A stretch of 64,000 nucleotides of DNA from a virus, in the IMG/VR virus record IMGVR_UViG_3300036770_005682, positions 73,812 to 137,811 of that record; one strand, 5' to 3'. Below, in pieces: positions 14,149-29,696 of this stretch (position 1 is the first letter of the stretch; each line of letters starts with the position of its first letter). Under the pieces are notes generated by a model. It searched no databases. It was not told where the DNA came from and worked only from the letters and a program-made list of their open reading frames with translations. The position numbers were made by a program, and so were the translations under genes.

Positions 14149-16123
14149 CCACTCCATTTAATTTGCTCCGGCGTAAGCCTTCTGCAAAGTAGTCAAGAAC
14201 AAGCTGCTGGTTTCCATCACTAAATTCTACATCGCTATTCGTATGAATAGCTTCTAGGTCGTTACCTTCTGTGGCTTGATTGACAACATCGCGCTTCGAC
14301 TCGATGAGACCATAAATCTTTTCATCGATTGTCCCTTCAGCGAGAATGTACGTAGCCATGACGGAGCCCTTCTGTCCAATGCGATGGCAACGACTATAAG
14401 TTTGGTCGACATCGGCGGGCGTCCATGGAAGCTCAACAAACACGACATCCTGTGCTGCAGTTAGTGTGTGACCCGTCTTTGCTGCCTGGATGGAGAGAAC
14501 CATCACGGGAGCGTCGTCTATCGGCATCGTCTGGAAAAGGCGCTTGTTCTCTTCGACGTCCTCTACCCTCATGCCGCCTTGAATCTTTAGGCCCCCGTAC
14601 TTCTTTGCAATGAGGTCAACTATTTCTCGGTGGTGAGCCGCAACAACAACCTTGTCTCCGGCTGTCAGTTTTCCGTCAATCCACTCATTCACCGCATCCA
14701 TCTTTGCCTTGGCAGCAAGACGGCGAAGCACGGATATTCGGACTAGGTGTTCATTGGATTCAGCTTTGATGCGGGCCTGCACGGCTGCAGAGTATGGAGA
14801 CTTGCCGAGTTCCTTGGCTAGCTCTTTGGCGCGATTTGCCATGTACTCGATGATGTCGTCTTCAGCCTTGGTGTATTCAGCCATGGCTGTGGGGTTGGGT
14901 GCAACAACTATCTTCGAATGCCGTACGGGTGGCAGCTCTTCGAGTACATCTGCTTTGATGCGGCGGATATAACACTGGCTGCGCAGCATGTCATTCAGTT
15001 CGTCAAGATGTGATGCACCGTCGATATGCCACTGCCCGAACCTGTCGCGGAATGCTCCGCAGTACCGCCGGTAGAACCCCCACAGGCCGCCAAACTTGTT
15101 TAGGTTCCCCAGGATGTCCAGCTGGCTGGCATACTCGGCTGGCCGGTTGGTTATTGGTGTACCAGTGAGACACAGAACAATTCCCTCTTTGGGGGCGGAA
15201 CGAGCCATCTTGACGGCAGCCTTGGTCCGCTTTGCCGTAGGCGTCTTTGCGTAGTGCGACTCATCGTAAACATACGACCGATGACCCTTTAATTCATTCT
15301 GCCAGTGGTCAATGTTGCTATACCCAACAACAAGGACATCATAAGTCCCAGCTTCAGGGAAGTCTTTGCGGTTAGTGACCGTTGCGACACGTCGTAGTGG
15401 CAGCCACTTTTCGTATTCCTTTGCCCAGTTGAGAACGAGGGTTGGAGGACAAACGACTACAGCCGGGTAGGAGTCATGGACGTACTCGAGAGTTGCTATG
15501 GCTTGCATTGTTTTGCCTAGGCCCATGTCATCGGCAATGAAGCAGCGGCGCGCATTGGCCGCATATTTGACCCCGGCACGCTGGTAGGGGAGAAGTTCGC
15601 CCTGGAGATTCGGTATCCGTATCTCCGCATCTCGTGCCCTGGATGCTGCGATGGTCTCGTTCTTGCTCTTCTCCATAGCGGAGGCAATAACCCTGACCCG
15701 CTCGGCTATCGGTTCATCGAACTTGTCGGCCCAGGCTATGGCGTCATGAATAACCGCCAGTGGGACTCGCCATGCCTTTGTTGGTGGGTGCCATGTAACG
15801 GATGGCAACGACTTGACAGAACGCACTTTTACTGGGTCATACAAAAAACTGAGATACACCCAGTCTTCGTCAACGTAGACACCGGCGGCTTTGTTGGTCG
15901 ACTCTGGCAGATTGAACTTGAGTACCTCATTGTCAACTTTGAACCGGTTACGCTCGGCAAACTCACGGGCTTCGTGCAGGCTAGTCATGGGTATGCGCCA
16001 CACCCTGGCTACCTTGTCCCACTTTGACCCCGGTATCGCCTTGACTTGAGATACTTGCTCAGCGTTGTATGGGAAAGATGCGGCAAGGTGGTCATCCCAA
16101 ATAAATAGCGTACTATCATCCAT
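14141..16123 (-). CDS. SNF2-family helicase with two N-terminal HARP-like domains (SMARCAL1-like)
   Basis: Two F.Y...V..VK..P...W......WR.P repeats; ADDMGLGKT, DESH, TGTP, SRCHRIGQ. Confidence 0.9.
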   Translation of the reverse strand: MDDSTLFIWDDHLAASFPYNAEQVSQVKAIPGSKWDKVARVWRIPMTSLHEAREFAERNRFKVDNEVLKFNLPESTNKAAGVYVDEDWVYLSFLYDPVKVRSVKSLPSVTWHPPTKAWRVPLAVIHDAIAWADKFDEPIAERVRVIASAMEKSKNETIAASRARDAEIRIPNLQGELLPYQRAGVKYAANARRCFIADDMGLGKTMQAIATLEYVHDSYPAVVVCPPTLVLNWAKEYEKWLPLRRVATVTNRKDFPEAGTYDVLVVGYSNIDHWQNELKGHRSYVYDESHYAKTPTAKRTKAAVKMARSAPKEGIVLCLTGTPITNRPAEYASQLDILGNLNKFGGLWGFYRRYCGAFRDRFGQWHIDGASHLDELNDMLRSQCYIRRIKADVLEELPPVRHSKIVVAPNPTAMAEYTKAEDDIIEYMANRAKELAKELGKSPYSAAVQARIKAESNEHLVRISVLRRLAAKAKMDAVNEWIDGKLTAGDKVVVAAHHREIVDLIAKKYGGLKIQGGMRVEDVEENKRLFQTMPIDDAPVMVLSIQAAKTGHTLTAAQDVVFVELPWTPADVDQTYSRCHRIGQKGSVMATYILAEGTIDEKIYGLIESKRDVVNQATEGNDLEAIHTNSDVEFSDGNQQLVLDYFAEGLRRSKLNGVDD

Positions 16124-16158
16124 GAACAGAAGTCTAATGCGTTAAGGATTGGAAGACA

Positions 16159-16473
16159 ATGCCGGAAGAAGTATTTTACGACCCAGAAGACGTGTCTCGT
16201 TCGTGGACCGAATTGAACATCGGCACACCCGGTATACGCACTACTCCACCGTTGCTCGAGTACTTGGAGCTGCTCGAGTCAGTCCGGTGGATGCTGCCGC
16301 GCGTAATGGCCTACTACTCCGAGCAGGACTGGTGTGCTGGTTGGCTTGTAGACCTCGAAAAGATACTTCCCGACCGCTACCCACAAATAGGCGTAGCAGC
16401 TAAGCATCTTGGGTCAATCTGTACATACTGGGACGGCAGCGAAGGCAGTCCTGGTGAATGGGGAGAGTTTTAG
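16159..16473 (+). CDS. hypothetical protein
   Basis: 104 aa with SEQDWCAGW motif. Confidence 0.7.
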   Translation: MPEEVFYDPEDVSRSWTELNIGTPGIRTTPPLLEYLELLESVRWMLPRVMAYYSEQDWCAGWLVDLEKILPDRYPQIGVAAKHLGSICTYWDGSEGSPGEWGEF

Positions 16474-16811
16474 TCTTCTCCCCGCAACGAACGTCGGTTA
16501 GCGTTGCGCTTTGACACCCTGATGTAGCCGTCAAGTCCCTTGGCTGTTATTGAATACTGGCCATTCGGAAGTTTCTGGATGAAACCCATCGTGGCGAGCT
16601 TCTTTATTGCATTGGTGAACATTTCCTTCTTGGGTGGAGAGGTAACTCGAAATGAGCAGTAGTCCTCATAACTGAAAATCCCACTCGGTCGTATCTTCCG
16701 CACAAAGAACGCGTATCCGAGAACCCTCTCAGCCCAAGAGTTGCGATTGAGAACCTTGAATGGGATTCCATAGTCTGGGTAACGCTGGTCCCACGGGATT
16801 TGCTTAGACAT
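16470..16811 (-). CDS. winged-helix-like protein
   Basis: AIKKL..MGFI......YSIT.KG pattern. Confidence 0.55.
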   Translation of the reverse strand: MSKQIPWDQRYPDYGIPFKVLNRNSWAERVLGYAFFVRKIRPSGIFSYEDYCSFRVTSPPKKEMFTNAIKKLATMGFIQKLPNGQYSITAKGLDGYIRVSKRNANRRSLRGED

Positions 16812-16920
16812 ACTGGCAGTCTACGGCCGCCACCACAAAATCAAACATACGGGGCTTTTAAGAACCCCGTTATTAAAAGCCGGGGCTGCGAAGCAGTTGT
16901 GAAGCGAGGTGTTCTGGGGC

Positions 16921-16953
16921 AAAACAAAAGGGGCGCACCAGAAGGTACGCCCC
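16921..16953 (-). terminator. intrinsic terminator
   Basis: GGGGCGTACC/GGTGCGCCCC stem then TTTTGTTTT on the - strand. Confidence 0.7.
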
Positions 16954-16967
16954 CAAAGTTCAGGCTT

Positions 16968-17021
16968 TTATGATGTCGCCATCAAAGCGACTAACGCCAA
17001 AGTGACAACTACGGCAACCAT
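16968..17021 (-). CDS. 17-aa hydrophobic micropeptide MVAVVVTLALVALMATS
   Basis: Starts 1 nt after the stop of 17023..17217, GGGGGTGA SD, followed by a terminator. Confidence 0.55.
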   Translation of the reverse strand: MVAVVVTLALVALMATS

Positions 17022-17022
17022 C

Positions 17023-17217
17023 TCACCCCCCTATCTCGGCTGTTGGGTCAAAGTACGGGTCGGGTACTGTCGTATCCCACGGACACGGGTAGTGAAAGTA
17101 CTCGCAGTCGGGTACATCGCTCACGCCGAACTCCATTTTGGAACAAGCGAACGCTCCAAGACAGAGGCAGATGAACAACAAACCCCACCGCACGCACGAG
17201 CGTACGAAGTAGTACAT
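17023..17217 (-). CDS. small secreted/lipoprotein-like protein
   Basis: Hydrophobic N-terminus ending AFAC; AGAAAGGA SD; own promoter. Confidence 0.65.
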   Translation of the reverse strand: MYYFVRSCVRWGLLFICLCLGAFACSKMEFGVSDVPDCEYFHYPCPWDTTVPDPYFDPTAEIGG

Positions 17218-17249
17218 AACAGTCCTTTCTTAGGACTCCGCCCATCTGA

Positions 17250-17304
17250 AATGTACAGGTGACAAGAGCAAATGTCAAGGTTTTCGCCTGTGTTCTCCGT
17301 CACA
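17250..17304 (-). promoter_or_regulatory. sigma-A promoter with upstream CRP-like box
   Basis: TTGACA-17-TACATT (17278-17250); TGTGT-N6-TCACA at 17289-17304. Confidence 0.75.
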
Positions 17305-17790
17305 CGGCTCAAAGTCACCGAAAGCCGTCGGGCGACCTGCCGGAAGAACTCCAACTGACCGGCGATGCTGGCTCAACAGTCCCGTATAGCTCTTAGAGCT
17401 CTACGGGGCTAACGCGGCGGGAAGAAGGTTTCCTGCGGGAAGTTCCGCAACCTAACACGAAAAACTCAAAAGTCAAGTTTTTGGAACCTTGAAAATAAAG
17501 GATTTCAAGTTTTGGGTTTTTGAAAATAAAAAACAAGAAACTGAAAACTCGGTTTTGCCGTCGGCACGAGTGCCATCTGAGTCCCCGTGCGGCTGACCTC
17601 GGCAGCCCCGCCGCCAGCATCTCAAAAAGATTTGACGGTGGCGGAAGAGCGGGTTCGGGTCAGGGTTTTGTGCCAAACCTAGACGCTCAGAACGGCTCAG
17701 GCTGAAACGGGGTCACCGATACCGCAGAAGAGGACGAACTCCCGTGAGAGGGCGTGTGAGGGGGCTATCCGAGGCGTTTAGGGGCATGGC

Positions 17791-17821
17791 AAAGCCGACC
17801 CACCCAACTGGCAGGTCGGCT
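17791..17821 (-). terminator. intrinsic terminator
   Basis: AGCCGACC/GGTCGGCT stem followed by TT on the - strand. Confidence 0.55.
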
Positions 17822-17834
17822 CAACCGATAACTA

Positions 17835-17885
17835 CTAGACGAAGAACAGCGCAGTCAAGGCGATGACTACAACGATGGCGGTCAT
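17835..17885 (-). CDS. 16-aa hydrophobic micropeptide MTAIVVVIALTALFFV
   Basis: ATGA overlap with the stop of the upstream gene; followed by a terminator. Confidence 0.6.
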   Translation of the reverse strand: MTAIVVVIALTALFFV

Positions 17886-18154
17886 GCTTGGGGAATACCC
17901 AAAGCGGCGAGCGTTGGGTGCGTTGAGTGTGTTTCTCCCTGTGCGTCTACCCACACAACAACATCACGACGAGGTGGTTCTTGCCCGCATGGGTAAAAGG
18001 CTGCCTTGTGCCAACCCTTAGAGCCACAGTTGTCGCAGTAGCGTTCCCAGTCTTGCGGGTCGTCCCACCACGCATGAGTTGCGTAGTTCGCATCTGCTTC
18101 TTCTTGTGTCCCAGCGAAAGGGACTGGTTCGTTTATGAGTTGGATTACCTTCAT
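17882..18154 (-). CDS. hypothetical protein with CDNC motif, leaderless
   Basis: ATG is 7 nt downstream of a TACACT -10 element. Confidence 0.75.
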   Translation of the reverse strand: MKVIQLINEPVPFAGTQEEADANYATHAWWDDPQDWERYCDNCGSKGWHKAAFYPCGQEPPRRDVVVWVDAQGETHSTHPTLAALGIPQA

Positions 18155-18161
18155 GTTGTGA

Positions 18162-18190
18162 AGTGTACCTAGCACATCGCAGAAAGTCAA
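18162..18190 (-). promoter_or_regulatory. sigma-A promoter (leaderless)
   Basis: TTGACT-17-TACACT. Confidence 0.8.
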
Positions 18191-18364
18191 GCGATGTCGG
18201 AAGAAACTTTCGAGACCTTCCTGGACGCCTGGCTGATGAACCCGATAGTCCCGTATCCCCAAGATGGGTATACGGGGCTGATGGCACGGGAAGGAAAACT
18301 TCCGGAGTTGACTTTTCACGGGCGGCTTGTTAGGTTATGCGTTTTGGTGTTTTGAGGTTTTTCA

Positions 18365-18407
18365 CCACTTTTAGTGGTTTTTGAGCAAAGTTCGCCACGG
18401 AAAGTGG
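18365..18407. repeat. paired CCAC-N5-GTGG palindromes within A/T tracts (copy 1)
   Basis: CCACTTTTAGTGG at 18365 and CCACGGAAAGTGG at 18395, starts 30 bp apart. Confidence 0.75.
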
Positions 18408-18540
18408 CGATTCCGAGAAAAACAACAAAACAACAACGAAGTTCTCGCCCGCCGAACGTGCGCTGAGCCGACATCAACTGGGTCGTCTGCGGGGCTGATG
18501 ACCCAGTCACATTTACGACGGTGGCGGAAGACGGGCAACA

Positions 18541-18570
18541 AGAAAGCCCGCCCCCTTTCGGAGACGGGCT
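18541..18570 (-). terminator. intrinsic terminator
   Basis: AGCCCG...CCGAAAGG...CGGGCT then TTCT on the - strand. Confidence 0.65.
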
Positions 18571-18575
18571 CTTGG

Positions 18576-18626
18576 TCAAACTGCCAGCAGAAGAACAACT
18601 GCCAGCGTAATCACTAACGCTGTCAC
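18576..18626 (-). CDS. 16-aa hydrophobic micropeptide MTALVITLAVVLLLAV
   Basis: GTG 2 nt after the upstream stop, GAGGGG SD, followed by a terminator. Confidence 0.55.
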   Translation of the reverse strand: MTALVITLAVVLLLAV

Positions 18627-18628
18627 TC

Positions 18629-18826
18629 TTAGTTTGTGTCCCCCTCTTCGGGGGAAACGATGTAATCAACATCGCCCCAAACTATTTCGTGCTCTCGCAC
18701 TGCTTTTACTTTTCCCAATTCGTTGGTGATGAGGTCAAGGTATGCCTCCACCTTCGCTTCTGCTTCACTTTCTGACTTTGCGTCAAAAGTGTGAACCATC
18801 AGCGTGATGTTCGCTATGTATTTCAC
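18629..18826 (-). CDS. hypothetical protein, leaderless GTG start
   Basis: GTG 6 nt after a TACATT -10. Confidence 0.7.
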   Translation of the reverse strand: MKYIANITLMVHTFDAKSESEAEAKVEAYLDLITNELGKVKAVREHEIVWGDVDYIVSPEEGDTN

Positions 18827-18832
18827 AGGTGG

Positions 18833-18877
18833 AATGTACACCCTGTACAACACAACGTCAATGTGTTCTGCGTCACA
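18833..18877 (-). promoter_or_regulatory. sigma-A promoter with abutting CRP-like box
   Basis: TTGACG-17-TACATT; TGTGT-N6-TCACA at 18862-18877. Confidence 0.75.
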
Positions 18878-19088
18878 CCTACGTCCAGCCGATGACCTGT
18901 CGTTGCTGTGAGATGTCAGCCGCCGCAGCGATGACCAGCATCTCGTGGGCTGAGCCCCAGGTGGGCAAAAGCCCCGATGGGGTAATACCCCAGCACGGGG
19001 CTGCCAGGCGCAACCGGCCGGAAGGCCTCGATGGCCGGCCCTCCCCGAGTTATTCGAATAAGTTTTGGTCTTTGTCGAGCAAAAACGA

Positions 19089-19131
19089 CCACTTTTTGTG
19101 GTTTTTGGATAAATCCGACCACGGAAAGTGG
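19089..19131. repeat. paired CCAC-N5-GTGG palindromes within A/T tracts (copy 2)
   Basis: CCACTTTTTGTGG at 19089 and CCACGGAAAGTGG at 19119, starts 30 bp apart. Confidence 0.75.
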
Positions 19132-19286
19132 TTTTTCCTAAAACTAAAACGGAAAAGTCGAGCTCAGCTCCTCGAGCTCACGTAGCTTCGCCAGCTATGC
19201 GGGGTTGTGGGGCGGGGCTCACAACCCCGACGCATCTACTTTGACGGTGGCGGAAGACGGCTAGCGCACCTGAGCCGAGACAGCAA

Positions 19287-19325
19287 CAAGCCCGCCGTGC
19301 GGGGGGAAGGGGCACGGCGGGCTTG
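19287..19325 (-). terminator. terminator-like hairpin with C-rich loop
   Basis: CAAGCCCGCCGTGC/GCACGGCGGGCTTG stem; loop CCCTTCCCCCC on the - strand. Confidence 0.65.
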
Positions 19326-19344
19326 TGCGATTGGTGAGAATGGA

Positions 19345-19707
19345 CTACTTCCAGCAGGCAGCGGAATAGACGACTTCGCTCAGGTTGTCGCAATAGACAT
19401 CAAGCACTTCGTGCTCAACGACTAGCGTACCTTTCGCTTCGCCACGGTTCACGAGTCGGACACGGCGCACTTCGTACAGGTCTAGGTAGTTGAGTACCAC
19501 CTCAACCGCACGACTCTCTCCGCACAGCATTAGCAAGCCAATGGTCACGCCATCGCTAGCGTTCACCTTTGCCCACTTTCCACCGCACACAGCGAGAAAG
19601 GTCATCTTGCCCATTTGGGCTATGACCTCTTGCGGGTCGCAGTCACGACCTGAACGGTCAAGGTTGCGCAAGGCAATCAGAGACAGGTCGGTTTTCGTTG
19701 CTTTCAT
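19345..19707 (-). CDS. hypothetical protein
   Basis: GAAAGGGGG SD; 120 aa ending DVYCDNL.E.VY. Confidence 0.8.
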   Translation of the reverse strand: MKATKTDLSLIALRNLDRSGRDCDPQEVIAQMGKMTFLAVCGGKWAKVNASDGVTIGLLMLCGESRAVEVVLNYLDLYEVRRVRLVNRGEAKGTLVVEHEVLDVYCDNLSEVVYSAACWK

Positions 19708-19730
19708 TTCTTCACCCCCTTTCACCTTGC

Positions 19731-19775
19731 AGGGTACAAGTCGCAAGTGGGTAAGTCAATAGGACAAGTGTCACA
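19731..19775 (-). promoter_or_regulatory. sigma-A promoter with abutting CRP-like half-match
   Basis: TTGACT-17-TACCCT; TAGGA-N6-TCACA at 19760-19775. Confidence 0.7.
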
Positions 19776-19786
19776 CTCGCCAGCCA

Positions 19787-19834
19787 GCCCGCCCGCACGC
19801 CCGCCCGCACGCCCGCCCGCACGCCCGTACGCAC
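19787..19834 (+). repeat. 12-bp tandem repeat GCCCGCCCGCAC x3 plus one variant
   Basis: Read directly. Confidence 0.9.
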
Positions 19835-19925
19835 GCGCGCGTAAGAGTCCCGGACGGGATTTATTCCCGACGGGGCTCCCGCACGGGATTGACGGTGGTG
19901 GAAGAGTTCCGATGCGGGCACAAAC

Positions 19926-19955
19926 AAAATGCCCGCCCCCTTGCGGAGACGGGCA
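19926..19955 (-). terminator. intrinsic terminator
   Basis: TGCCCG...CGGGCA then TTTTG on the - strand; near copy of the 18541 hairpin. Confidence 0.65.
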
Positions 19956-19972
19956 GTTCGTTGGAGTTTCAG

Positions 19973-20329
19973 TTAGCGGTCTGGATTCGGCGTTGCCTTC
20001 ACCGTAAAAGTTCCGCTTGCATCGTGGTGGGCGAGGTGGCAAGTGAGCACTTTCGTTTCAGGGTCAAGCGAGTAACGCAATGACCATTCCGAACGGACAG
20101 TGATACTTTCCAACAACTTCATCGGAGTATCGGCGTGGAAAATGCCGTCTATCGTGCGTGCCCACAAAGGGAATCCTTCAATGCGCCACCAAGTGTCGCC
20201 TTCGTGAAGTTCCTTGTTGTGTTCAAGCATGACTTCGGCAGTCATGGCAAACAAGTCTGTCGCCATGTCCCACTCCCACTCTTCGGAAGTGTTGCTTACC
20301 TCTTCCCACTCCAAGTCGGAGTCAAGCAT
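19973..20329 (-). CDS. hypothetical protein
   Basis: GAAAGGGGGG SD; 118 aa with C-terminal HHD motif. Confidence 0.8.
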   Translation of the reverse strand: MLDSDLEWEEVSNTSEEWEWDMATDLFAMTAEVMLEHNKELHEGDTWWRIEGFPLWARTIDGIFHADTPMKLLESITVRSEWSLRYSLDPETKVLTCHLAHHDASGTFTVKATPNPDR

Positions 20330-20359
20330 GACTCCCCCCTTTCATGAGTTGAGAATGAC

Positions 20360-20414
20360 AGACTACCGACTTAGTAGCGATTAGTCAAGTAGGCATCGTG
20401 TGACATTAGGCACT
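20360..20414 (-). promoter_or_regulatory. sigma-A promoter with upstream CRP-like box
   Basis: TTGACT-17-TAGTCT; TGTGA-N6-GCACT at 20399-20414. Confidence 0.7.
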
Positions 20415-20654
20415 TCCGAGTAAGACGATAAGAATAAGGACTACAAAGATAGGCACTAATGACATGACAGCAACTTACCGCACCTGAGCCGAAAAAACAA
20501 CAACCCGATGTCGGCGATGTCGGGATGGGACGGGAGCCCCGGAGGCCCGCTGCCGGCCCACGGGGCTAACGGGTATCCGACGGTGGCGGAAGAAGGGCTC
20601 GCACTTCTCGTCGGGCTGACTTGGTCTGCTCAGTTTCAGTCGTGCTGTTTCGTG

Positions 20655-20731
20655 CGAACGCCTGTTCGGGTCGTGAGACGCTCTGCCCCTGTGTGTCTCA
20701 TGCGAACACCTGTTCGGCGAACATCTGTTCT
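20655..20731. promoter_or_regulatory. three LexA (SOS) boxes CGAAC-N4-GTTCG
   Basis: CGAACGCCTGTTCG 20655, CGAACACCTGTTCG 20703, CGAACATCTGTTCT 20718. Confidence 0.75.
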
Positions 20732-20774
20732 GTGACAAACGACACTTGCAATGTGTCCTTGACACCTGTACCCT
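20731..20774 (+). promoter_or_regulatory. sigma-A promoter with abutting CRP-like box
   Basis: TGTGA-N6-ACACT at 20731-20746; TTGCAA-17-TACCCT. Confidence 0.7.
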
Positions 20775-20908
20775 ACTAGGTGGGACAACCTGCCCGCCTA
20801 GCCTGTGGTGAAGCGACCTGCGTCACGGGGGGAACTAGAAAAGGTAGGGGGTGCGCCGTAGGGAAGGCGTACCTGTCCCACTCAACATAAGAACCGAGAA
20901 GGGGAACC

Positions 20909-21085
20909 ATGACACGCAAAGATTATGTCTTGCTTGCCAGTCATCTCCGCTACGCTCGTACGGGCGTTTCCGTCTCTCTGCTTGCAGGGTTTGACGAAGC
21001 CGTAGAAGCAATAGCGGACGCACTCGCAAGTGAGAACCACCGTTTTGACCGCGATAAGTTTTTGGAAGCGGTGAACCCGAACTAA
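20909..21085 (+). CDS. small phage protein (58 aa, MTRKDY...ENHRFDRDKFLEA)
   Basis: Read manually; GAAGGGG SD; resembles a common MTRKDY/N.RFD..KF small phage-protein pattern. Confidence 0.8.
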   Translation: MTRKDYVLLASHLRYARTGVSVSLLAGFDEAVEAIADALASENHRFDRDKFLEAVNPN

Positions 21086-21109
21086 ACATTCCCAACACCA
21101 CAGGCACAG

Positions 21110-21141
21110 AAAGCCCCATGCCGTTTGGCGTGGGGCTTTTT
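21110..21141 (+). terminator. intrinsic terminator
   Basis: AAAGCCCCATGCC-GTTT-GGCGTGGGGCTTTTT. Confidence 0.8.
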
Positions 21142-21322
21142 GTTTGCCCTCAACTCCCAGTCGGAACACCTCGCCAGATGGCTTTGATGGCATCTGGTAG
21201 CCCCGGAAGCCGTGCGGCAGCAACGGGGCTCCCACAGGAGTGCGACGGTGGTGGAAGTCCCCTGGTCTCCGCCTCTCCTCGCCTACCTCGCCCGCTGTCA
21301 TCATTCGTCTGTCTCAAACTGA

Positions 21323-21367
21323 TGTGACAAACGTCATGTTGTGATGTGTACCTGACAGGTGTAGTGT
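21323..21367 (+). promoter_or_regulatory. sigma-A promoter (leaderless) with abutting CRP-like box
   Basis: TGTGA-N6-TCATG at 21323-21338; TTGTGA-17-TAGTGT; ATG 7 nt later. Confidence 0.7.
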
Positions 21368-21374
21368 GCTATGT

Positions 21375-21962
21375 ATGGAAACAGCAACGAAGGAAGCCAT
21401 AGCACTACGGGTGCTTGCCGAATACTGGCAGACAGATGTAGCCCCAATGGTGAACCCACGAGCCTGTGTGCTTGCTGGACGCTTGGCGACTGTTGTGCTT
21501 GGTCGCATCGGCATTTCCACCGCCGTCTACCACACCGACACCGTTGCTATGAATGACCTGTGGTACAACCTGTTCATCGTCAAGGGGCTTGGTCAGCAGT
21601 TCCTTCCCCCTGAGGCATGGTGTGTTGGTGCTGTCACCGCAGATGTCAAGGGAACGCACAGCACGATGGTTGGCGGTTTCAGCGGTCACCTTGTTGTGAC
21701 AACCCCGCACCACTTTGTAGACCTGAGCGCAAGCCAGTTTGACCGTCCCTCACATGACATCGTGACTGGCTCGCCACTCATCGTCCCCCGTGAGAACATC
21801 ACAGACACGCCACATGGCAAGATGGTTCCGATACAGCGTGGTGTTTACATCACGAAGCCTGCCGAGAACCCTGCGTCATACCAATGGACACCCGACTGGC
21901 AGACCAACTACAAGACCTTTGCGAAGCCACTCATCACCCGCCTGCGGGAGATGTTCTCGTGA
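21375..21962 (+). CDS. hypothetical protein, possible Cys-His-Asp transglutaminase-like fold
   Basis: ACV.A...GHLVV....VDLSA.QF pattern. Confidence 0.7.
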   Translation: METATKEAIALRVLAEYWQTDVAPMVNPRACVLAGRLATVVLGRIGISTAVYHTDTVAMNDLWYNLFIVKGLGQQFLPPEAWCVGAVTADVKGTHSTMVGGFSGHLVVTTPHHFVDLSASQFDRPSHDIVTGSPLIVPRENITDTPHGKMVPIQRGVYITKPAENPASYQWTPDWQTNYKTFAKPLITRLREMFS

Positions 21963-22216
21963 CCGTACGAGACTGGTACGAGTTTGTGGAAACGGACTTG
22001 GAGAACTACGAGCGTGAGAAGTTTCGTGAGATGCTGTCCGACATCGGCTTTGATGACCTGTATGTGGAACGCACCGATGACCACGGCATTTGCTACTTGT
22101 GCGAGCGTGATGGAGTGTTGTACCTTGTAATGAACAGAGGACAACTGCGTGAGACAAATGCCTACTACCTTTGCTCTACCTGTACTAACGAGATGAAGCG
22201 AAAGACCGAAGAATGA
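21959..22216 (+). CDS. Zn-finger hypothetical protein
   Basis: GTGA overlap; CYLC...CSTC. Confidence 0.7.
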   Translation: MTVRDWYEFVETDLENYEREKFREMLSDIGFDDLYVERTDDHGICYLCERDGVLYLVMNRGQLRETNAYYLCSTCTNEMKRKTEE

Positions 22217-22371
22217 CCGGAATGTTGTATTCGCAGCGCAACGCACACTCATGCCCGTGGGGGTGCTGTGGCGATTTCGTCAAGGGTCGTGGAACGAAGC
22301 ACCGCTGTAAGAAGTGGCATCGCATCTTGCGTACCCGTGAGAAGCGCAACTGGAAGAAAGAGGAATGGTGA
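22213..22371 (+). CDS. small basic Cys-containing protein (52 aa)
   Basis: Read manually; ATGA overlap; CPWGCC, R.REKR.WKK. Confidence 0.65.
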   Translation: MTGMLYSQRNAHSCPWGCCGDFVKGRGTKHRCKKWHRILRTREKRNWKKEEW

Positions 22372-22838
22372 CTGCACCCGAATACGAAAGTTGGTGGGAC
22401 AGCGATGCTGGCAAGCCCGCCAGTCTCTGCGATGCCTGCGGGCAGAAGCAACTACTAACCCAACAGACATCGCCCGCCCTTCCTGATGGGGGCTGGATTA
22501 TGGAGTTTGAGCATTTCGGCTATTACGGCGGGTTCTCTGACGACATTGAGGTTGCGTTTGGCAAGCGAGACAGTAACTCATGGTCGCTTTGCCATGACTG
22601 CGTTGTGAAGTTCTTTGAGACATTCCCTGCGCTAGCGGAGAAGTTCGGTCGGGGGCACCACCCCAACTTCATTCACACAGACGACCTGCCGTACAGTGAG
22701 CGAGGCACATCTAGCCCGTCATGCTGTCGCTTTGCGTGGACATGGAATGTGACCGTTGAGAACGGAGAGAAGGTCTACGAGACTTTCTACGGAGATGGCA
22801 CAGGTGGCTGGGTTGCCCAGTCTAAGGAGCGAGTCTGA
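22365..22838 (+). CDS. Zn-binding hypothetical protein
   Basis: CDAC...GYYGGF.D...LCHDC. Confidence 0.75.
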   Translation: MVTAPEYESWWDSDAGKPASLCDACGQKQLLTQQTSPALPDGGWIMEFEHFGYYGGFSDDIEVAFGKRDSNSWSLCHDCVVKFFETFPALAEKFGRGHHPNFIHTDDLPYSERGTSSPSCCRFAWTWNVTVENGEKVYETFYGDGTGGWVAQSKERV

Positions 22839-22888
22839 TGGTTGTCAGCATCGTCGCCCTGATAGCCATCCTTCTGCTGTTGTCCTAG
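22838..22888 (+). CDS. 16-aa hydrophobic micropeptide MVVSIVALIAILLLLS
   Basis: TGATG overlap with the upstream stop, AAGGAG SD, last gene of the operon. Confidence 0.6.
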   Translation: MVVSIVALIAILLLLS

Positions 22889-23097
22889 AACAGCATTTCC
22901 CCGCTACTGCCCTCTTTCTTTTTTCTGCTTGTCTCTGTCTCTACGCAGATGGAGTGGGCGTACTTGTGCTGGTTCTTCACGCCCCTGATGCCTGTGTTGT
23001 TGTCACGCACCCACGCCAACACGAGTTTCATAGTTCCACTTTGGTTCGGAACTACCTCTTGGTCACAGAACTCACATCGGAAGCGAACGTACGACAT
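22885..23097 (-). CDS. small Zn-binding protein, leaderless
   Basis: CEFC...HSIC; TTGCGC-17-TATTAT (23133-23105) then ATG 7 nt later. Confidence 0.7.
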   Translation of the reverse strand: MSYVRFRCEFCDQEVVPNQSGTMKLVLAWVRDNNTGIRGVKNQHKYAHSICVETETSRKKKEGSSGEMLF

Positions 23098-23183
23098 TAT
23101 GGAAATAATACCGGCCGGGGCTCCCGAGCGCAACAGCATCTTCTTTGACGGTGGTGGAAGAAGCCCCTGAACGGGGACAGCAG

Positions 23184-23213
23184 AAAGCCCACACCCGTTT
23201 CCGAGTGTGGGCT
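23184..23213 (-). terminator. intrinsic terminator
   Basis: AGCCCACAC/GTGTGGGCT stem, TTCT on the - strand. Confidence 0.65.
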
Positions 23214-23236
23214 GACTGTTGGAAGCGAGTTGTGCG

Positions 23237-23692
23237 CTAGTTGTTCTTGGCGATGAGTTGGTAAAGCGTGGAGAGCAGAGCGTCTGCGAGAGAGCCGTGC
23301 GCTTCACCTTCGTCTGTCATCGGTTCATCGGGGTCGTGCTGAAAGACGACTGCCGAACCCATTGTTCCGTCACGCTCAACGCAAGCACAGAGACGCACAC
23401 GCTGACGGAGTGGGTGCTGGCTTGGTGCGCCTTCCACTTCGCCGTTGGAGTTGAGTGGGGAAGCCCACCCCGTCGTCAGGACACCAATGCCCTGCTCGTA
23501 CTCCTGAATGTTCTCAATGCTCGGCAGGCTCGCAAGCCCTTCGTAGATGTCTCCTGCTGTCGCAAGGACACGGAAGCCGTCGGCACAGTACGCAAACAGG
23601 ACTGCCTGTTCCATACTGAAACCTTCGTCTCCTTCCTTGGAGAGTGAGTGCTGGGCGAGTAACGCCATACGCACAGGTGTTGGTGTTGTCAC
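23237..23692 (-). CDS. hypothetical protein
   Basis: GAAAGGGG SD; TTGWA.P...PSQHP.R.RVRL motif. Confidence 0.8.
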   Translation of the reverse strand: MTTPTPVRMALLAQHSLSKEGDEGFSMEQAVLFAYCADGFRVLATAGDIYEGLASLPSIENIQEYEQGIGVLTTGWASPLNSNGEVEGAPSQHPLRQRVRLCACVERDGTMGSAVVFQHDPDEPMTDEGEAHGSLADALLSTLYQLIAKNN

Positions 23693-23722
23693 TTGTTCCC
23701 CTTTCGTAGTGGTGACAGTTAC

Positions 23723-23767
23723 ACACTACACAGAACACAAACAAATGTCAATGTGTCGTTAGGCACA
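23723..23767 (-). promoter_or_regulatory. sigma-A promoter with abutting CRP-like box
   Basis: TTGACA-17-TAGTGT; TGTGT-N6-GCACA at 23752-23767. Confidence 0.75.
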
Positions 23768-23958
23768 GCCGGCAAGTCCAAACTTTGACCGAGTCCAAAC
23801 TTTGAGCAGGTCAAGACCGACAAACCGGAACGCCGGTGACATCTGGGGCTGAGAGCCCCGCGCCCCGCCGCAGCCCAACGGGGCTCCACACCACTTTGAC
23901 GGTGGCGGAAGAAGCCCTCGTGTGCGCCTGCGTGTGTGCGCCTGCGTGTGTGCGTGAA

Positions 23959-24013
23959 TGTGCCGAATGTCACTACGCACCCCTATTGACTTGCTGTTCC
24001 TGTCAAGTACACT
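23959..24013 (+). promoter_or_regulatory. sigma-A promoter with upstream CRP-like box
   Basis: TGTGC-N6-TCACT at 23959-23974; TTGACT-16-TACACT. Confidence 0.65.
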
Positions 24014-24045
24014 CAACAACACCTACTAACCGAAGGGACGGAACA

Positions 24046-24630
24046 ATGGGAATGGACGTAATCGGGAAGAACCCGAAGAACAAGAAGGGCGAATACTTCC
24101 GCAACAATGTGTGGTGGTGGCGACCCCTGTGGCAATACTGCGAGTATGTCGCACCCGAACTGACCGACAAGGTGGAATACGCTGGCTCTAATGACGGAGA
24201 CGGGCTGGACGGAGATGACGCTCGCAAGTTGGGCAACGCTCTGCGGAAAGAACTCCGCAAGGGCATGACCGCCGTGTACATCTCTGCTCGTCAGGAATAC
24301 TTGGACAGCCTGCCTGTTCGCCCGTGCGCCCATTGTGAGGCAACGGGAACTCGCAAGTGGCTGGTCAATGCCACTACAAACGAGCGCAAGCCGGCTGTGA
24401 CCTACAACTTCTTGGAAGCGTTCACCAACGAGCAGACGAACAACGGGCAACTGCCGACTTACGAGTACCACACGCCCGAAGAAGGCTGGGTGGAAGAGAC
24501 AACCGAATGTAATGGTTGTGAAGGCACGGGTGGACAGCCTGCGTGGGAACGCTCGTACCCCCTCACCGAAGAGAATGTTCGTGAGTTCGCCACCTTCTTG
24601 GTGAACTGCGGTGGATTTGAGATTTGGTGA
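24046..24630 (+). CDS. hypothetical protein with split DnaJ-type CxxCxGxG Zn finger
   Basis: MGMD, YFRNNVWWWRPLW, CAHCEATG...CNGCEGTG, C-terminal GGFEIW. Confidence 0.8.
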   Translation: MGMDVIGKNPKNKKGEYFRNNVWWWRPLWQYCEYVAPELTDKVEYAGSNDGDGLDGDDARKLGNALRKELRKGMTAVYISARQEYLDSLPVRPCAHCEATGTRKWLVNATTNERKPAVTYNFLEAFTNEQTNNGQLPTYEYHTPEEGWVEETTECNGCEGTGGQPAWERSYPLTEENVREFATFLVNCGGFEIW

Positions 24631-24848
24631 TGACCCCCGTACATGACCTTGTGCTGCGCTTCATGCGCTCAAACCTCATTGGCAAGCGTGTCACTTTGTT
24701 GTTCACTTCCGACCCCTACACCAACCTCACACGGGGTGATGAAGGCGTTGTGGACTACATTGACGACATTGGTACTGTGTTCGTCAAGTGGGACAACGGC
24801 TCTCGCTTGGGTCTTGTGGAAGGAGAAGATTTGTGGACATACAACTGA
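24630..24848 (+). CDS. DUF4314-like SH3-fold protein
   Basis: G.RV.L....DPY..L..G..G.V..IDD.GT..V.WDNGS.LGL..GED. Confidence 0.75.
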   Translation: MTPVHDLVLRFMRSNLIGKRVTLLFTSDPYTNLTRGDEGVVDYIDDIGTVFVKWDNGSRLGLVEGEDLWTYN

Positions 24849-25087
24849 CAGATGAATGGGCTGACATCTCTATTGCTGAGTTGGCTGACCTCATGGAAGA
24901 GAACTACTACCTGCTCGCAAGTACGGGTCAGGACGCTTTTTTGGCGTTCGCAGATGATGTGTTGCGTGGTGCGTTCACCGAGTATCACGGCATGAGCGAG
25001 GAACGGACTGCTTTGCTCATGGTTGAGTTTGTCAAGCGTATGGTTCTTGTGTGGGACAAGCCTGCCGTGCCTTACGAGGTGCGCTAA
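24833..25087 (+). CDS. hypothetical protein
   Basis: AAGGAG SD before GTG 24833. Confidence 0.65.
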   Translation: MDIQLTDEWADISIAELADLMEENYYLLASTGQDAFLAFADDVLRGAFTEYHGMSEERTALLMVEFVKRMVLVWDKPAVPYEVR

Positions 25088-25152
25088 TGCTGTGGTTTAT
25101 CGGTATGTCGGCACTCGCTAGTCTTATTTTGTACCTGCGCTTCTCTGACTAA
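25087..25152 (+). CDS. 21-aa hydrophobic micropeptide MLWFIGMSALASLILYLRFSD
   Basis: TAATG overlap, GAGG SD, last gene before hairpins. Confidence 0.55.
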   Translation: MLWFIGMSALASLILYLRFSD

Positions 25153-25200
25153 GTTCTCCAACAGGGGTAATCCGTCCCCCCTTTCACCTCTGTTGGACTG

Positions 25201-25244
25201 AAACCCCCAAGTCGTGTCTCACGCTGGCACGGCTTGGGGGTTTT
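25201..25244 (+). terminator. intrinsic terminator
   Basis: AAACCCCCAAG...CTTGGGGGTTTT. Confidence 0.75.
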
Positions 25245-25380
25245 CTCATGTCCGAACTTCGGTGGCCATCTACGGCCAGCATCACAGATGGTAAATACGA
25301 CCCGCCGGGGCTCCCGCCCGCCCGCCCGTCACTACTTTGACGGTGGCGGAAGAGCAGGGACACGAGAGTGGGTACACGAG

Positions 25381-25417
25381 AAAGGGGTCGCCCACCGCAT
25401 TTGGCAGGCGACCCCTT
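25381..25417 (-). terminator. intrinsic terminator
   Basis: AAGGGGTCGCC/GGCGACCCCTT stem. Confidence 0.65.
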
Positions 25418-25435
25418 AGCAGGGACGGTCAGTTG

Positions 25436-26011
25436 TCAGTTCTGCGAGTTCTGATAGGCGTGACACGCCTTCGTGAAGGCACGGAAGATGTCGGAGACAA
25501 CGCCGTGGAGTTCTCCATCAGCGATGTCAGGCTCGTCATACACAGGCAGTCCGTTGTCGTCATAGCGATAGAACACGGTCGCACCGATGGGTTCTCCGTC
25601 CCACGGATACACGCTGACGATGATGCCTTCACGAACATCGGTGGAAGGGTTCGTCTTGTATTCCTCTTCGTACGCACCACGGTCGTGATTTTCCAACTCT
25701 TCTTCGGTCACACTTCCAGCAGGCTTGGCGTAGCCTTCCACGATGTAGGCGAGCCACTTCCAGCGAACAGACTGAAAGTTGTCCACCATTCCTTCTGCGA
25801 GTCCTGACAACATCAACGGCAAGGTGTCGGTCGGGTGTCCTTCCATCAGGTCGGGCATAATGAAGCCGTCACCGCTCGGCAGTTCACCAACAAGGGTGGG
25901 CGGTGCGTCCGTTATCCCTTTGTTCTCTTCACAGATGCCGTACTTGGCTTCCATCGCACGGGCAACGACAGCCAACAGAATGTCTGTTGGCGTCATCTCT
26001 TCTTCTTCCAT
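25436..26011 (-). CDS. hypothetical protein
   Basis: 191 aa, AAGGGG SD, own promoter and terminator. Confidence 0.8.
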   Translation of the reverse strand: MEEEEMTPTDILLAVVARAMEAKYGICEENKGITDAPPTLVGELPSGDGFIMPDLMEGHPTDTLPLMLSGLAEGMVDNFQSVRWKWLAYIVEGYAKPAGSVTEEELENHDRGAYEEEYKTNPSTDVREGIIVSVYPWDGEPIGATVFYRYDDNGLPVYDEPDIADGELHGVVSDIFRAFTKACHAYQNSQN

Positions 26012-26046
26012 TTGGTTCCCCCTTATGGGTAGTAGGTACAGGTGTC

Positions 26047-26090
26047 AGTTTATGGTGTGTCCAACCTGTTGTCAAGTGCCATCGGTCACA
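26047..26090 (-). promoter_or_regulatory. sigma-A promoter with abutting CRP-like box
   Basis: TTGACA-17-TAAACT; AGTGC-N6-TCACA at 26075-26090. Confidence 0.75.
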
Positions 26091-26253
26091 CGCCTGAAAC
26101 TTGGAGTCAGTCCAAAGTTTGAGCAAGTCCAGCCCGCACCACGAGCCAGAAGGTCTGGCTGAGGGCAGAAGCCCCGCGCCCCGATGCTGCCGTCCGGGGC
26201 TCATCAGCCTGACGGTGGCGGAAGAAGCCCCTGCGCCCTGTACCCTGTACCGT

Positions 26254-26415
26254 ATGGGTCGGCGTAAGCACATCGCACAACCGAAATGGACGGCAGACGA
26301 GCGCACAGCGTTCGGTGATGGGGTGCGTACACGAGCAAGCACCGTGCCTGACAAGCGCAAGCGGGAGAGCAAGCGAGCCTGCCGACAGCCTGTGACGGAC
26401 GACACAGAGAAATAG
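26254..26415 (+). CDS. small basic protein
   Basis: TACCCT 7 nt before ATG; RA.TVPDKRK..SK.ACR. Confidence 0.6.
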   Translation: MGRRKHIAQPKWTADERTAFGDGVRTRASTVPDKRKRESKRACRQPVTDDTEK

Positions 26416-26484
26416 TTGCTTTTCGTGTGTGGGGTGTGTAGTGTTCCCCTTGTACCTGACACCCACAGCAGGAAGCGATAAGGG

Positions 26485-26539
26485 TGTGGCGAATGTCACA
26501 CAAGAACCTATTGACAAGTGCTTGTGTCCCCTGTAAGGT
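26485..26539 (+). promoter_or_regulatory. sigma-A promoter with upstream CRP-like box
   Basis: TGTGG-N6-TCACA at 26485-26500; TTGACA-17-TAAGGT. Confidence 0.75.
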
Positions 26540-26577
26540 ACACATTGTCCACAAGTCCCCAAACAAGAAAGAAGGAA

Positions 26578-27000
26578 ATGACCGTGGCACACTCAGTAGA
26601 GCAGGCAACCCGCCTGTACCTGTTGGCAAAGGAAGCCAGCGCACAAGCGGAAGCACAGAAGAAGGAAGCGGAACAGGCGTTGCGTGAGGCACTCGCCATC
26701 GCAGGCATCAGCGCAAGCGTGGTGGACGGCATCAAGGTCGCCATCGTGGAAGGCGAGCGCAAGTCCTACGACGCAGACAAGTTGGCGATGCTCGTGAAGC
26801 CCGCCACCTACAAGAAGGTCACCAAGCCCGTCGTGGACGGGGAGATGCTCGCAAGCGCAGTCAGCGTTGGCATCATCTCGCAGGAAGTGGCAGACACCAT
26901 CACAAAGGTCACCACCTACTCGCAGGTGCGTACCACCGCCGTCTCGCCCGATGCGAAGGCGAAGTCCCTGTCCGACAACGGCAAGGCGCAGGTCGCCTAG
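26578..27000 (+). CDS. coiled-coil protein (architecture reminiscent of Mu Gam/Gp157-like proteins)
   Basis: AAAGAAGG SD; N-terminal helix then KVTK.VVD...L segment; family is a guess. Confidence 0.7.
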   Translation: MTVAHSVEQATRLYLLAKEASAQAEAQKKEAEQALREALAIAGISASVVDGIKVAIVEGERKSYDADKLAMLVKPATYKKVTKPVVDGEMLASAVSVGIISQEVADTITKVTTYSQVRTTAVSPDAKAKSLSDNGKAQVA

Positions 27001-27141
27001 CACCCACAAGTCTCGTGTGGGGTGGGAGACACCGCAGATGCTCGCCCACCCCACACAAGAAAGTGGCTACGCAGGTTGTGACTATCAACCGAAGTGGCTA
27101 CACTCCACAACACCAACAACTCCCACGAAAGGGGAACCCCA

Positions 27142-27882
27142 ATGACAAGTGTGGCAGACACACAAGAGACACTTCCCGCCTGTTGGCAGGAAGTCCACGA
27201 TGCGCTGGAAGCGGGCATTGACCGCCTTATCCTGTTCGGCGTTCCAGGAACAGGCAAGACCTACGCAGGTCTGAACTACGGCAACACCGATGCGGGTGCG
27301 TTCCGTCTCATCTGTACCGATGACATGACCAACGCCGATGTGACAGGGTGCTGGCAACCCAATGACCACGGCTCGTGGTCGTGGCTGGAAGGCTCGGCTA
27401 TCCGTGCGTGGAAAGGCGATGGCACAGTCGGTGGTCGTCTCGTCATTGACGAGATAGACAAGGCTGGTGGCGATGTGTTCGCTACCCTGCTTGCGATGAC
27501 CGACAGCCCTGAGAGCGCAAAGTGGGAACACCCGCACACCCGCAAGGTGTTGCGCCCCAACGCAGGTTTCAGCGTGGTGATGACCACCAACATTGAGCAG
27601 ATGAGCGACCTGCCGATGGCACTCAAAGACCGTTTCCCCGTGTGCGTCCGTATCAACGAACCGCACCCGTCAGCACTCGCCCGTCTGAGCGAGGACTTGC
27701 GTGACTACGCCCGTCAGATGGCAGACGCAGGCGAACGCCGTATCTCTCTCCGTGCGTTCTACGCCTTTGACCAACTGCGTACCGCACTCGGCACGAAGCG
27801 GGCGGCGCAGATGGTGTTCCGTGACCGTGCTAAGAGCGTGGTGGACGCTATCGCCATCAACACCATGACCCCGCAGAAGTAG
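27142..27882 (+). CDS. MoxR/CbbQ-type AAA+ ATPase
   Basis: GVPGTGKT Walker A, LVIDEID Walker B, MTTN sensor, ALKDRF. Confidence 0.9.
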   Translation: MTSVADTQETLPACWQEVHDALEAGIDRLILFGVPGTGKTYAGLNYGNTDAGAFRLICTDDMTNADVTGCWQPNDHGSWSWLEGSAIRAWKGDGTVGGRLVIDEIDKAGGDVFATLLAMTDSPESAKWEHPHTRKVLRPNAGFSVVMTTNIEQMSDLPMALKDRFPVCVRINEPHPSALARLSEDLRDYARQMADAGERRISLRAFYAFDQLRTALGTKRAAQMVFRDRAKSVVDAIAINTMTPQK

Positions 27883-27887
27883 GGGTC

Positions 27888-29420: not shown

Positions 29421-29534
29421 ACCGCACAGGCGGACTGTTCCCCCACCCACAGGGACAGCCCGCCCAAGCGTGGCGGGCGGGTGGCACTTCCCCCTTTCAG
29501 TCACCCGCCCGCCTGAACACGAAAGAGAACGCAG

Positions 29535-29696
29535 ATGAAGTGGAACACCACAGCAGTCATGGGTCACATTGTTGAGACTGTGACCACCGAAGCAGACGAC
29601 ATTGACACCGCAACGGAGATGGCATACGACCTGCTGGAAGGCAAGGGCTATGACCTGTCAGCCTTTGACGAAGTGACAACGGAGAGCGAGCGATGA
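29535..29696 (+). CDS. small acidic protein (53 aa)
   Basis: Read manually (MKWNTTAVMGH...); ATGA overlap with the next gene. Confidence 0.65.
   Translation: MKWNTTAVMGHIVETVTTEADDIDTATEMAYDLLEGKGYDLSAFDEVTTESER

Follow-up and report, generated by a model that had tools for sequence, protein, structure and literature searches.

Can a reading frame of sixteen or seventeen codons be a gene, and what would a phage do with several of them? The question is raised by the 137,811-bp sequence of an uncultured phage, IMG/VR record IMGVR_UViG_3300036770_005682 (called G000 below). The stretch analysed, referred to as the window, is the final 64 kb of this record, and the features described are numbered from its first letter. 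In its early region, several small transcription units carry, against the stop codon of a gene, a minute open reading frame (ORF) whose predicted product is almost purely hydrophobic. We first describe these micro-ORFs and their conservation in related viruses, then the genetic boundary to which they are attached, and finally the functions that may be considered for them. Because evolution has kept them readable and hydrophobic, they probably encode real membrane-active peptides.

Inventory of the Micro-ORFs

The original prediction, made from the window, described a family of five micro-ORFs ending early operons. These five are confirmed, with exact coordinates and translations, and all of them overlap the upstream stop codon or lie at most 2 nucleotides (nt) from it. 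The total was too low, since a six-frame scan of the 137.8-kb record brings it to at least seven. On the minus strand, micro-ORF A (16968-17021, 17 residues, MVAVVVTLALVALMATS) starts with an ATG located 1 nt past the TGA of the gene at 17023-17217 and is preceded by a Shine-Dalgarno-like GGGGGGT. Micro-ORF B (17835-17885, minus strand, 16 residues, MTAIVVVIALTALFFV) is devoid of Shine-Dalgarno-like sequence and overlaps the stop of 17882-18154 within an ATGA, and micro-ORF C (18576-18626, minus strand, 16 residues, MTALVITLAVVLLLAV) uses a GTG start placed 2 nt past the TAA of 18629-18853. On the plus strand, micro-ORF D (22838-22888, 16 residues, MVVSIVALIAILLLLS) has an ATG start, with AAGGAG upstream, that is fused to the stop of 22365-22838 as TGATG. 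Micro-ORF E (25087-25152, plus strand, 21 residues, MLWFIGMSALASLILYLRFSD) also starts with ATG and overlaps the stop of 24833-25087 as TAATG. The operon-ending position holds for most members but not for the two that were added by the scan. One of these (20406-20465, minus strand, 19 residues, MSLVPIFVVLILIVLLGSA) stands alone between a terminator and the promoter of the gene at 19973-20329, upstream of that promoter. The other (33510-33566, plus strand, 18 residues, MMATLIFAAAVVALFTCN) is internal to an operon, with an ATGA overlap at the stop of 33205-33513 and the next gene about 20 nt downstream. By our reading, about half of the roughly ten units found between 16.9 and 26.2 kb bear a micro-ORF.

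It had also been claimed that three members of exactly 16 residues lack any charge, which is true for B, C, and D; E contains R and D. The grand average of hydropathy (GRAVY) ranges from 2.0 to 3.1 in six of the seven G000 members. E, which is less hydrophobic and falls under the cut-off of 1.9, is the weakest member of the family. The number of such ORFs was compared with that found in simulated sequence, counting ORFs of 14-30 residues with a GRAVY of at least 2.4. Whole G000 contains six of them, whereas 60 first-order Markov simulations gave 0.48 on average and never more than 3. The 19.5 kb from 16000 to 35500 contain five, whereas 300 simulations averaged 0.03 and never exceeded 1. The sixth match in the genome (1978-2046, minus strand) was excluded as a member; it lies inside a longer ORF opposite a plus-strand gene. 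Searches with the two 21-residue members of the family gave no family in Pfam and one match in PHROGs, at E = 0.62, the members of 16-19 residues being too short to scan.

Conservation of the Reading Frames in Related Viruses

Relatives were located in IMG/VR by means of a 15-nt part of an 18-nt repeat that lies in the spacers between units (see below). At least 149 loci were obtained, many of them chance matches, and the counts given in this paragraph hold among the matches listed. Two or more copies of the repeat are present in 22 contigs, 11 of which have at least one micro-ORF. When distinct ORFs of 14-22 residues with a GRAVY of at least 2.3 are counted, the 22 multi-motif contigs contain 27 per 97.8 kb, vs. 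2 per 130.9 kb in 87 single-motif loci. Adding G000 and a contig 98% identical to it (L013) gives 33 distinct ORF sequences, two of which were dropped (L121 and L134, unrelated single-motif loci). The resulting 31 ORFs come from G000 and 12 IMG/VR contigs; 18 of them encode 16 residues, 8 encode 17, and 5 encode 18-21. Longer stretches of G001 and G003, which form one lineage, and of G002 and G004 carry 3-9 micro-ORFs each, and the copy number per phage genome may be given as 6-9. Leu (22%), Val (20%), Ile (16%), and Ala (16%) dominate the composition of the 31 ORFs. The peptides share a layout with small polar residues near both ends and a hydrophobic core of about 12-13 residues drawn from Leu, Val, Ile, Ala, and Phe.

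G000 is 66-81% identical in nucleotide sequence to G001/G003 where the genomes can be aligned, and the order of the units differs. As judged by flanking sequence, six of the seven G000 micro-ORFs have a positional orthologue in G001/G003. The G001 orthologue of A (L163, 6578-6631) differs at 18 of 54 nt with ORF and hydrophobicity kept and, as judged by similarity of the flanks, A also has orthologues in G002 and G004. The orthologue of B (L163, 7454-7504) differs at 24 of 51 nt, that of C (L163, 8719-8769) at 13 of 51 nt, with no difference at codon position 2, and that of D (L163, 11010-11060) at 29 of 51 nt; D has a further orthologue in L164 (13873-13926). The stand-alone micro-ORF corresponds to a 21-residue ORF in L163 (12730-12795), an in-frame change of length, and to a 16-residue ORF in L164 (11992-12042), with the same TGTCACA...CTTGACT downstream. 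For the operon-internal micro-ORF, orthologues of 17 residues are found in L165 (3382-3435) and L164 (2730-2783) together with a conserved downstream gene. Finally, E has a 19-residue counterpart in G002 (L164, 9876-9935), located after a homologous gene. At the other end of the scale of divergence, the L013 copy of B shows a single F-to-I change.

In the four ungapped pairs between G000 and G001 (A to D), start, stop, length, and a GRAVY of 2.4-3.1 are all kept. Random substitution at an equal number of sites preserves the ORF with a GRAVY of at least 2.3 in 0.22% of trials for A, 0.03% for B, 2.0% for C, and 0 of 20,000 trials for D. Differences at codon positions 1, 2, and 3 in these pairs amount to 39, 15, and 30. 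Between orthologues, start codons change only by switches of ATG and GTG, and lengths change by whole codons (19 vs. 21 residues, 18 vs. 17 residues). Loss of frame or of hydrophobicity in relatives, named by the original prediction as what would speak against it, is not what is seen; relatives at about 70% nucleotide identity retain the frame with its start and stop, its length, and its hydrophobicity. Closer pairs have proportions of synonymous differences (pS) of 0.68 and 0.41, vs. proportions of nonsynonymous differences (pN) of 0.08 and 0.09, respectively. Taken together, closer pairs have pN/pS values of about 0.1-0.6. In the pairs of the MNSLLF subgroup with a pS of at least 0.25, pN/pS is about 0.16-0.75, and one pair encodes the same Ser from the two different serine codon families.

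Signals of translation point in the same direction. A duplex with the anti-Shine-Dalgarno sequence of -5 kcal/mol or below is found for 42% of the 31 ORFs, vs. 14% of 2400 control ATG/GTG sites (p = 7e-6, the 31 sequences being non-independent). Across the family, the second codon position is T in 69% of cases; this value partly reflects the selection of the ORFs and is partly circular because the family was found with a hydrophobicity filter. Two trivial origins were considered and ruled out. The micro-ORFs are not by-products of a gene on the opposite strand, because pN is lower than pS in the peptide frame and because the region spans terminators and promoters. They are not an artefact of recent tandem duplication either; as estimated by eye, about one nucleotide in two differs between the G000 paralogues, and orthologues are retained from lineage to lineage. 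Among four DNA sequencing runs, a strain with roughly 91% identity over the region shows up in X5, X7, and X10, with 205 of 2231 nt differing.

These alignments show that selection has kept the reading frames open, provided with a start codon, fixed in length, and hydrophobic. Of the paralogous set of membrane micropeptides claimed by the original prediction, the part that concerns genuine paralogous genes for hydrophobic micropeptides stands, with frame, length, and hydrophobicity kept and pN below pS in the closer pairs.

A Portable Module at the Cassette Boundary

Copies of the micro-ORF could be mapped with respect to their neighbours in G000 and four relatives. Out of 23, 18 adjoin the stop of an upstream ORF that has 60 residues or more, with offsets of -2 to +7, one adjoins a 22-residue ORF, and four stand alone. 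The overlaps of start and stop codons take several forms across the family, ATGA, GTGA, TGATG, TAATG, and TAGTG. The upstream genes are mutually unrelated and almost all of them are without a family match in Pfam and PHROGs.

On the downstream side, 18 of the 31 unique ORFs are followed, 0-23 nt past the stop, by a hairpin that has a T-rich tail and a folding energy of -17 to -28 kcal/mol. The ORF ends before the hairpin and not across it. In G000, the intrinsic terminator after A (16920-16954, minus strand) has its hairpin 13 nt past the stop (-22.8 kcal/mol, tail TTTGTTTTG). The hairpin after B (17788-17826, minus strand) reaches -29.1 kcal/mol (z = -5.6) and has a short U tail, UUUGCC. The hairpin of the intrinsic terminator after C (18535-18571, minus strand; -22.9 kcal/mol) lies 4 nt past the stop, with a reverse-complement copy of the 18-nt repeat 13 nt further on. 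Two hairpins follow E (25157-25250, plus strand), amounting together to -52 kcal/mol (z = -8.0), the second one with a UUUUCU tail. After D, no convincing terminator is found within 100 nt (z = -1.6).

The boundary at C gives a view of how these elements move. G000 and L013 are identical from the GTG through the ORF, the terminator, and the repeat, save one synonymous change. Upstream of the start of C, L013 bears a gene of the G001 type instead of the G000 gene, so that a mosaic junction is located at the start codon. The junction is also seen, as a joint 18630/18833, in contigs from two sequencing runs. Comparison of the genomes shows in this way that micro-ORF and terminator travel together as a portable cassette-end module, independent of the upstream gene.

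If up to 3 mismatches are allowed, the 18-nt repeat itself (TTTGACGGTGGCGGAAGA) is present in the unit spacers in 14 copies, each on the plus strand, vs. 0.06 expected. A looser pattern gives 15 copies, located at 17631, 18514, 19240, 19888, 20576, 23144, 23895, 25336, 26208, 29932, 30631, 32901, 33776, 34443, and 35159 (plus strand, span 17631-35176). The repeat keeps to the plus strand regardless of the direction of the neighbouring gene and is often preceded by a CGGGGCTCC box. It is strictly one-way in five relatives as well, with forward/reverse counts of 13/0, 0/15, 0/18, 4/0, and 0/10. It could be a site for recombination, for replication, or for a regulator. Repeat and micro-ORF are separable because G005 (L167, G005:1-20000) has 9-10 repeat copies and no clear hydrophobic micro-ORF in 20 kb. 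Promoter-gene-terminator units are reordered between 16000-36000 and L163, L164, and L165, homologous blocks end near repeats, and the early region looks like a shuffling cassette array. The spacers contain other small repeated elements. Between the repeat and the next promoter, the A/T-rich spacers at about 18360-18450 and 19080-19140 (minus strand) have repeated small hairpins (CCACTTTCCGTGG, CCACAAAAAGTGG), and short GC-rich tandem repeats (GCGTGCGGGCGG, GCGCCTGCGTGTGT) are found just upstream of cassette promoters, at about 19790-19850 and 23920-23950.

A Possible Function at the Host Membrane

The reading towards which we lean is that the micro-ORFs are real, translated genes for membrane peptides acting like toxins of the Ibs type. 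Ribosomes ending the translation of an upstream early gene would re-initiate at the micro-ORF, or would initiate at it with the help of a Shine-Dalgarno sequence. All early transcripts that the host RNA polymerase makes would then supply a single pool of peptide. After release, the peptides would partition into the cytoplasmic membrane of the host and, in the manner of Ibs-type hydrophobic toxins, would affect either the bilayer or a complex of membrane proteins by mass action. Host takeover, exclusion of other phages, or the blocking of a membrane-bound defence effector may be the result; we do not rank these. A bolder proposal, which we find possible but doubtful, joins the micro-ORF, the terminator, and the one-way 18-nt repeat into one portable module of a shuffling early-gene array, which would automatically hook any captured gene to a micro-gene. 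Every early transcript would feed a shared pool of uncharged helices of 16-17 residues, each too short to span the bilayer alone, and together these helices would put out of action either a membrane complex of the host or the proton gradient.

By analogy, an Ibs-type hydrophobic toxin is the nearest functional model, and the likeness in composition to these toxins that had been put forward is a fair one. According to a preprint, IbsA is a hydrophobic peptide of 19 residues that acts in the membrane, binds the Fo subunits a and b, and lowers ATP (bioRxiv 10.1101/2025.05.26.656083). Both groups of peptides are very short, almost purely hydrophobic, and without signal sequence, and the 16-21 residues of the present family fall within the size of type I toxins (less than about 60 residues). 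However, the micro-ORF peptides are shorter than Ibs, mostly 16-17 residues, and neither charged nor aromatic residues are found at the ends of B, C, and D. In addition, instead of the layout of a stand-alone toxin transcript, the micro-ORFs are hooked to the stop of an upstream gene to which they are unrelated, and a phage genome has 6-9 of them. The architecture of a type I toxin-antitoxin system does not appear to be present, the ORFs being coupled to upstream genes and the Rfam scan of 16000-36000 at E ≤ 1 having found no antitoxin RNA among the Rfam families; it gave one sub-threshold match, sbrA, with 24.9 bits vs. a gathering value of 45, at 16923-16971.

Several observations weigh against a membrane peptide under selection. 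The ORFs of the relatives used in the orthologue tests had passed the same hydrophobicity filter. Between G000 and G001, 34 codons show a replacement vs. 13 with synonymous changes only, that is, most codon changes alter the residue, and at this distance the alignments make selection visible on composition and length only. The family is also dispensable; among the matches listed, 11 of the 22 motif-bearing contigs are without micro-ORF in the sampled stretches, including the 20 kb of G005. E is missing at the orthologous site of G001, where the orthologous gene runs directly into the terminator. D is missing after the homologues of 22365-22838 in four contigs, L009-L012, in which no repeat copy turned up. 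Because of this last absence and of the mosaic junction in L013, the micro-ORF is to be seen as belonging to the cassette boundary and not to the preceding gene. The hydrophobic core of 12-13 residues would be short for a lone bilayer-spanning helix. Finally, no nucleotide match to the window exists among 50,697 cultured phage records, as searched by megablast with 16400-25400, and two proteins of the cassette region gave zero matches to phages with tblastn.

Alternative Explanations

Two other explanations start from the terminators. In a cis-acting module, translation would matter and the peptide would be a by-product; the ribosome terminating on the micro-ORF, itself at a fixed distance from the terminator, would cover the 5' arm of the hairpin and couple termination, or read-through to the cassette that follows, to translation, whatever the gene upstream. 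The distances fit, since the 18 unique ORFs that have a hairpin end 0-23 nt before it and, by our reading, about 10 of the 18 end at 0-5 nt. The tandem arrangement of the cassettes and the movement of ORF and terminator separately from the upstream gene fit as well. However, conserved hydrophobicity, conserved length and, in close pairs, conserved residues are left unexplained, three subtypes (D, the ORF at 33510, and the stand-alone type) have no terminator behind them, and each next cassette has a promoter of its own. We hold such a module to be unlikely. Attenuation is a related idea. Leader peptides of branched-chain amino-acid attenuators are encoded by short ORFs, rich in Leu, Val, and Ile, located just upstream of an intrinsic terminator. 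The micro-ORFs are alike in that Leu, Val, and Ile make up 58% of their residues and that most copies are followed by a terminator; stalling at these codons would sense charged branched-chain tRNA and turn the downstream terminator off. In contrast with attenuator leaders, the micro-ORFs are located 3' and not 5' of genes, at the 3' end of units, the downstream units have their own promoters, and some copies are without terminator. Pairing of the ORF or spacer with the 5' arm of the terminator is no stronger than in 200 shuffles each (mean z = +0.49, 21 cases with hairpin), and no RNA structure is conserved because codon positions 1 and 3 of the ORFs are close to saturation. For lack of antiterminator pairing, the attenuator model is rejected, and we give it hardly any credit.

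The coupling to upstream genes suggests another possibility, in which -1 ribosomal frameshifting or stop bypass would provide a fraction of the early protein with a membrane-anchoring tail. Indeed, by our arithmetic, 16 of the 18 coupled copies have their hydrophobic frame in the -1 register relative to the upstream gene, and copies of the B type have an in-frame TTTGGGT heptamer. Nevertheless, a canonical X_XXY_YYZ heptamer leading into the peptide frame exists in 3 of the 23 copies only, for which reason frameshifting is rejected as a general explanation. Moreover, an ATG or GTG opens every copy exactly where the hydrophobic run begins, with orthologues switching between these two codons only, Shine-Dalgarno-like sequences are enriched upstream, and the four stand-alone copies have no upstream gene; we consider this route very unlikely. 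Real peptides may also have their site of action outside the bilayer, in the cytoplasm or at a hydrophobic pocket of a protein, and might there decoy a protease, a chaperone, or the machinery that handles signal peptides. The family might be compared to a signal-peptide core without charged N-region, its core of 12-13 residues often ending in small residues such as ATS, GSA, ASG, AMS, or AIS. Against this, several members end otherwise (FFV, LAV, LAI) and uncharged peptides of this hydrophobicity are expected to partition into lipids, so that decoys seem to us as unlikely as a cis-acting module. The least probable explanation of all is that of chance or decaying ORFs devoid of function. It would account for the half of the sampled motif-bearing contigs, among the matches listed, that lack the family. 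It is strongly disfavoured by the five ORFs observed vs. 0.03 expected, by frames kept across about 30% nucleotide divergence (joint probability of about 1e-12, obtained by our multiplication of the four per-pair frequencies), by pN lower than pS, and by the enrichment in Shine-Dalgarno sequences.

If the micro-ORFs do encode membrane peptides, as we favour, they have partial parallels in other systems. In phage lambda (NC_001416), an unannotated hydrophobic ORF of 26 residues (40567-40647; L168, 1068-1148) overlaps the stop of ren in an ATGA. Like the micro-ORFs, it is a hydrophobic mini-ORF of an early region whose start overlaps an upstream stop. However, it is single-copy, longer, has charged residues, and is not part of a multi-copy cassette array, whereas the micro-ORFs are shorter and uncharged, occur in 6-9 copies per genome, and belong to a cassette-end module. 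The small membrane proteins with which bacteria regulate membrane complexes are single hydrophobic helices that bind larger membrane proteins, with known examples of about 30-50 residues and charged flanks. Compared with them, the micro-ORF peptides are half as long, multi-copy, and phage-encoded. A non-exhaustive keyword search of the literature brought up no account of a multi-copy family of this kind, and such ORFs may be present in catalogues of small phage genes. The passages of a review that were covered mention no such family, and the words "hydrophobic" and "transmembrane" are absent from that review.

Neighbouring Genes, Promoters, and Genomic Setting

The genes coupled to the micro-ORFs are themselves small. 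On the minus strand, a 64-residue gene (17023-17217) has its stop coupled to A and a 90-residue gene (17882-18154) is coupled to B, both without family match. The 74-residue gene coupled to C (18629-18853, minus strand) is the one replaced by a different gene in the near-identical strain while C is kept. On the plus strand, a 157-residue gene (22365-22838) is coupled to D, an 84-residue gene with a GTG start (24833-25087) to E, and a 102-residue gene (33205-33513) to the micro-ORF at 33510.

Sigma-70-like promoters precede the three minus-strand cassettes. They read TTGACA, 17 nt, TACATT for cassette A (17250-17278), TTGACT, 17 nt, TACACT for cassette B (18162-18190), and TTGACG, 17 nt, TACATT for cassette C (18833-18861). 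These three matches to TTGACN-17-TAYAYT compare with 0.19 expected and speak for early expression from promoters of the host type. In cassette B, the ATG is located 7 nt past the -10 hexamer and, in cassette C, the GTG is located 6 nt past it. Because the start codons lie 6-7 nt past the -10 hexamer without a Shine-Dalgarno sequence (18154-18190 and 18853-18861), the transcripts of cassettes B and C look leaderless.

At its ends, G000 has only a 127-bp direct terminal repeat, and the assembly may be circular or permuted. The window encodes an SNF2 helicase, a primase-helicase, a class II ribonucleotide reductase, and a DUF932 protein. It also has tRNA genes on the minus strand, for Leu-TAG (146-226), Arg-TCT (469-542), and Lys-TTT (4964-5037). 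An actinobacterial host is only weakly suggested, because identity between the G000 replication proteins and proteins from phages of Arthrobacter and Gordonia is 30-35%.

Significance

Gene callers do not see genes of 16-17 codons, nor do the family databases that were queried, and comparative evidence alone indicates that a phage clade keeps 6-9 of them per genome. The unusual arrangement of a micro-gene tied to a cassette boundary bears on the exchange of genes and on the co-expression of accessory functions in phage early regions. If the peptides act on the membrane, they would be compact, easily synthesised membrane effectors made by phages, and a model for how very short helices work. If the more doubtful idea of a module feeding a shared pool were true, the micro-ORFs would be among the shortest conserved phage effector genes known, with a dosage spread over many transcription units.

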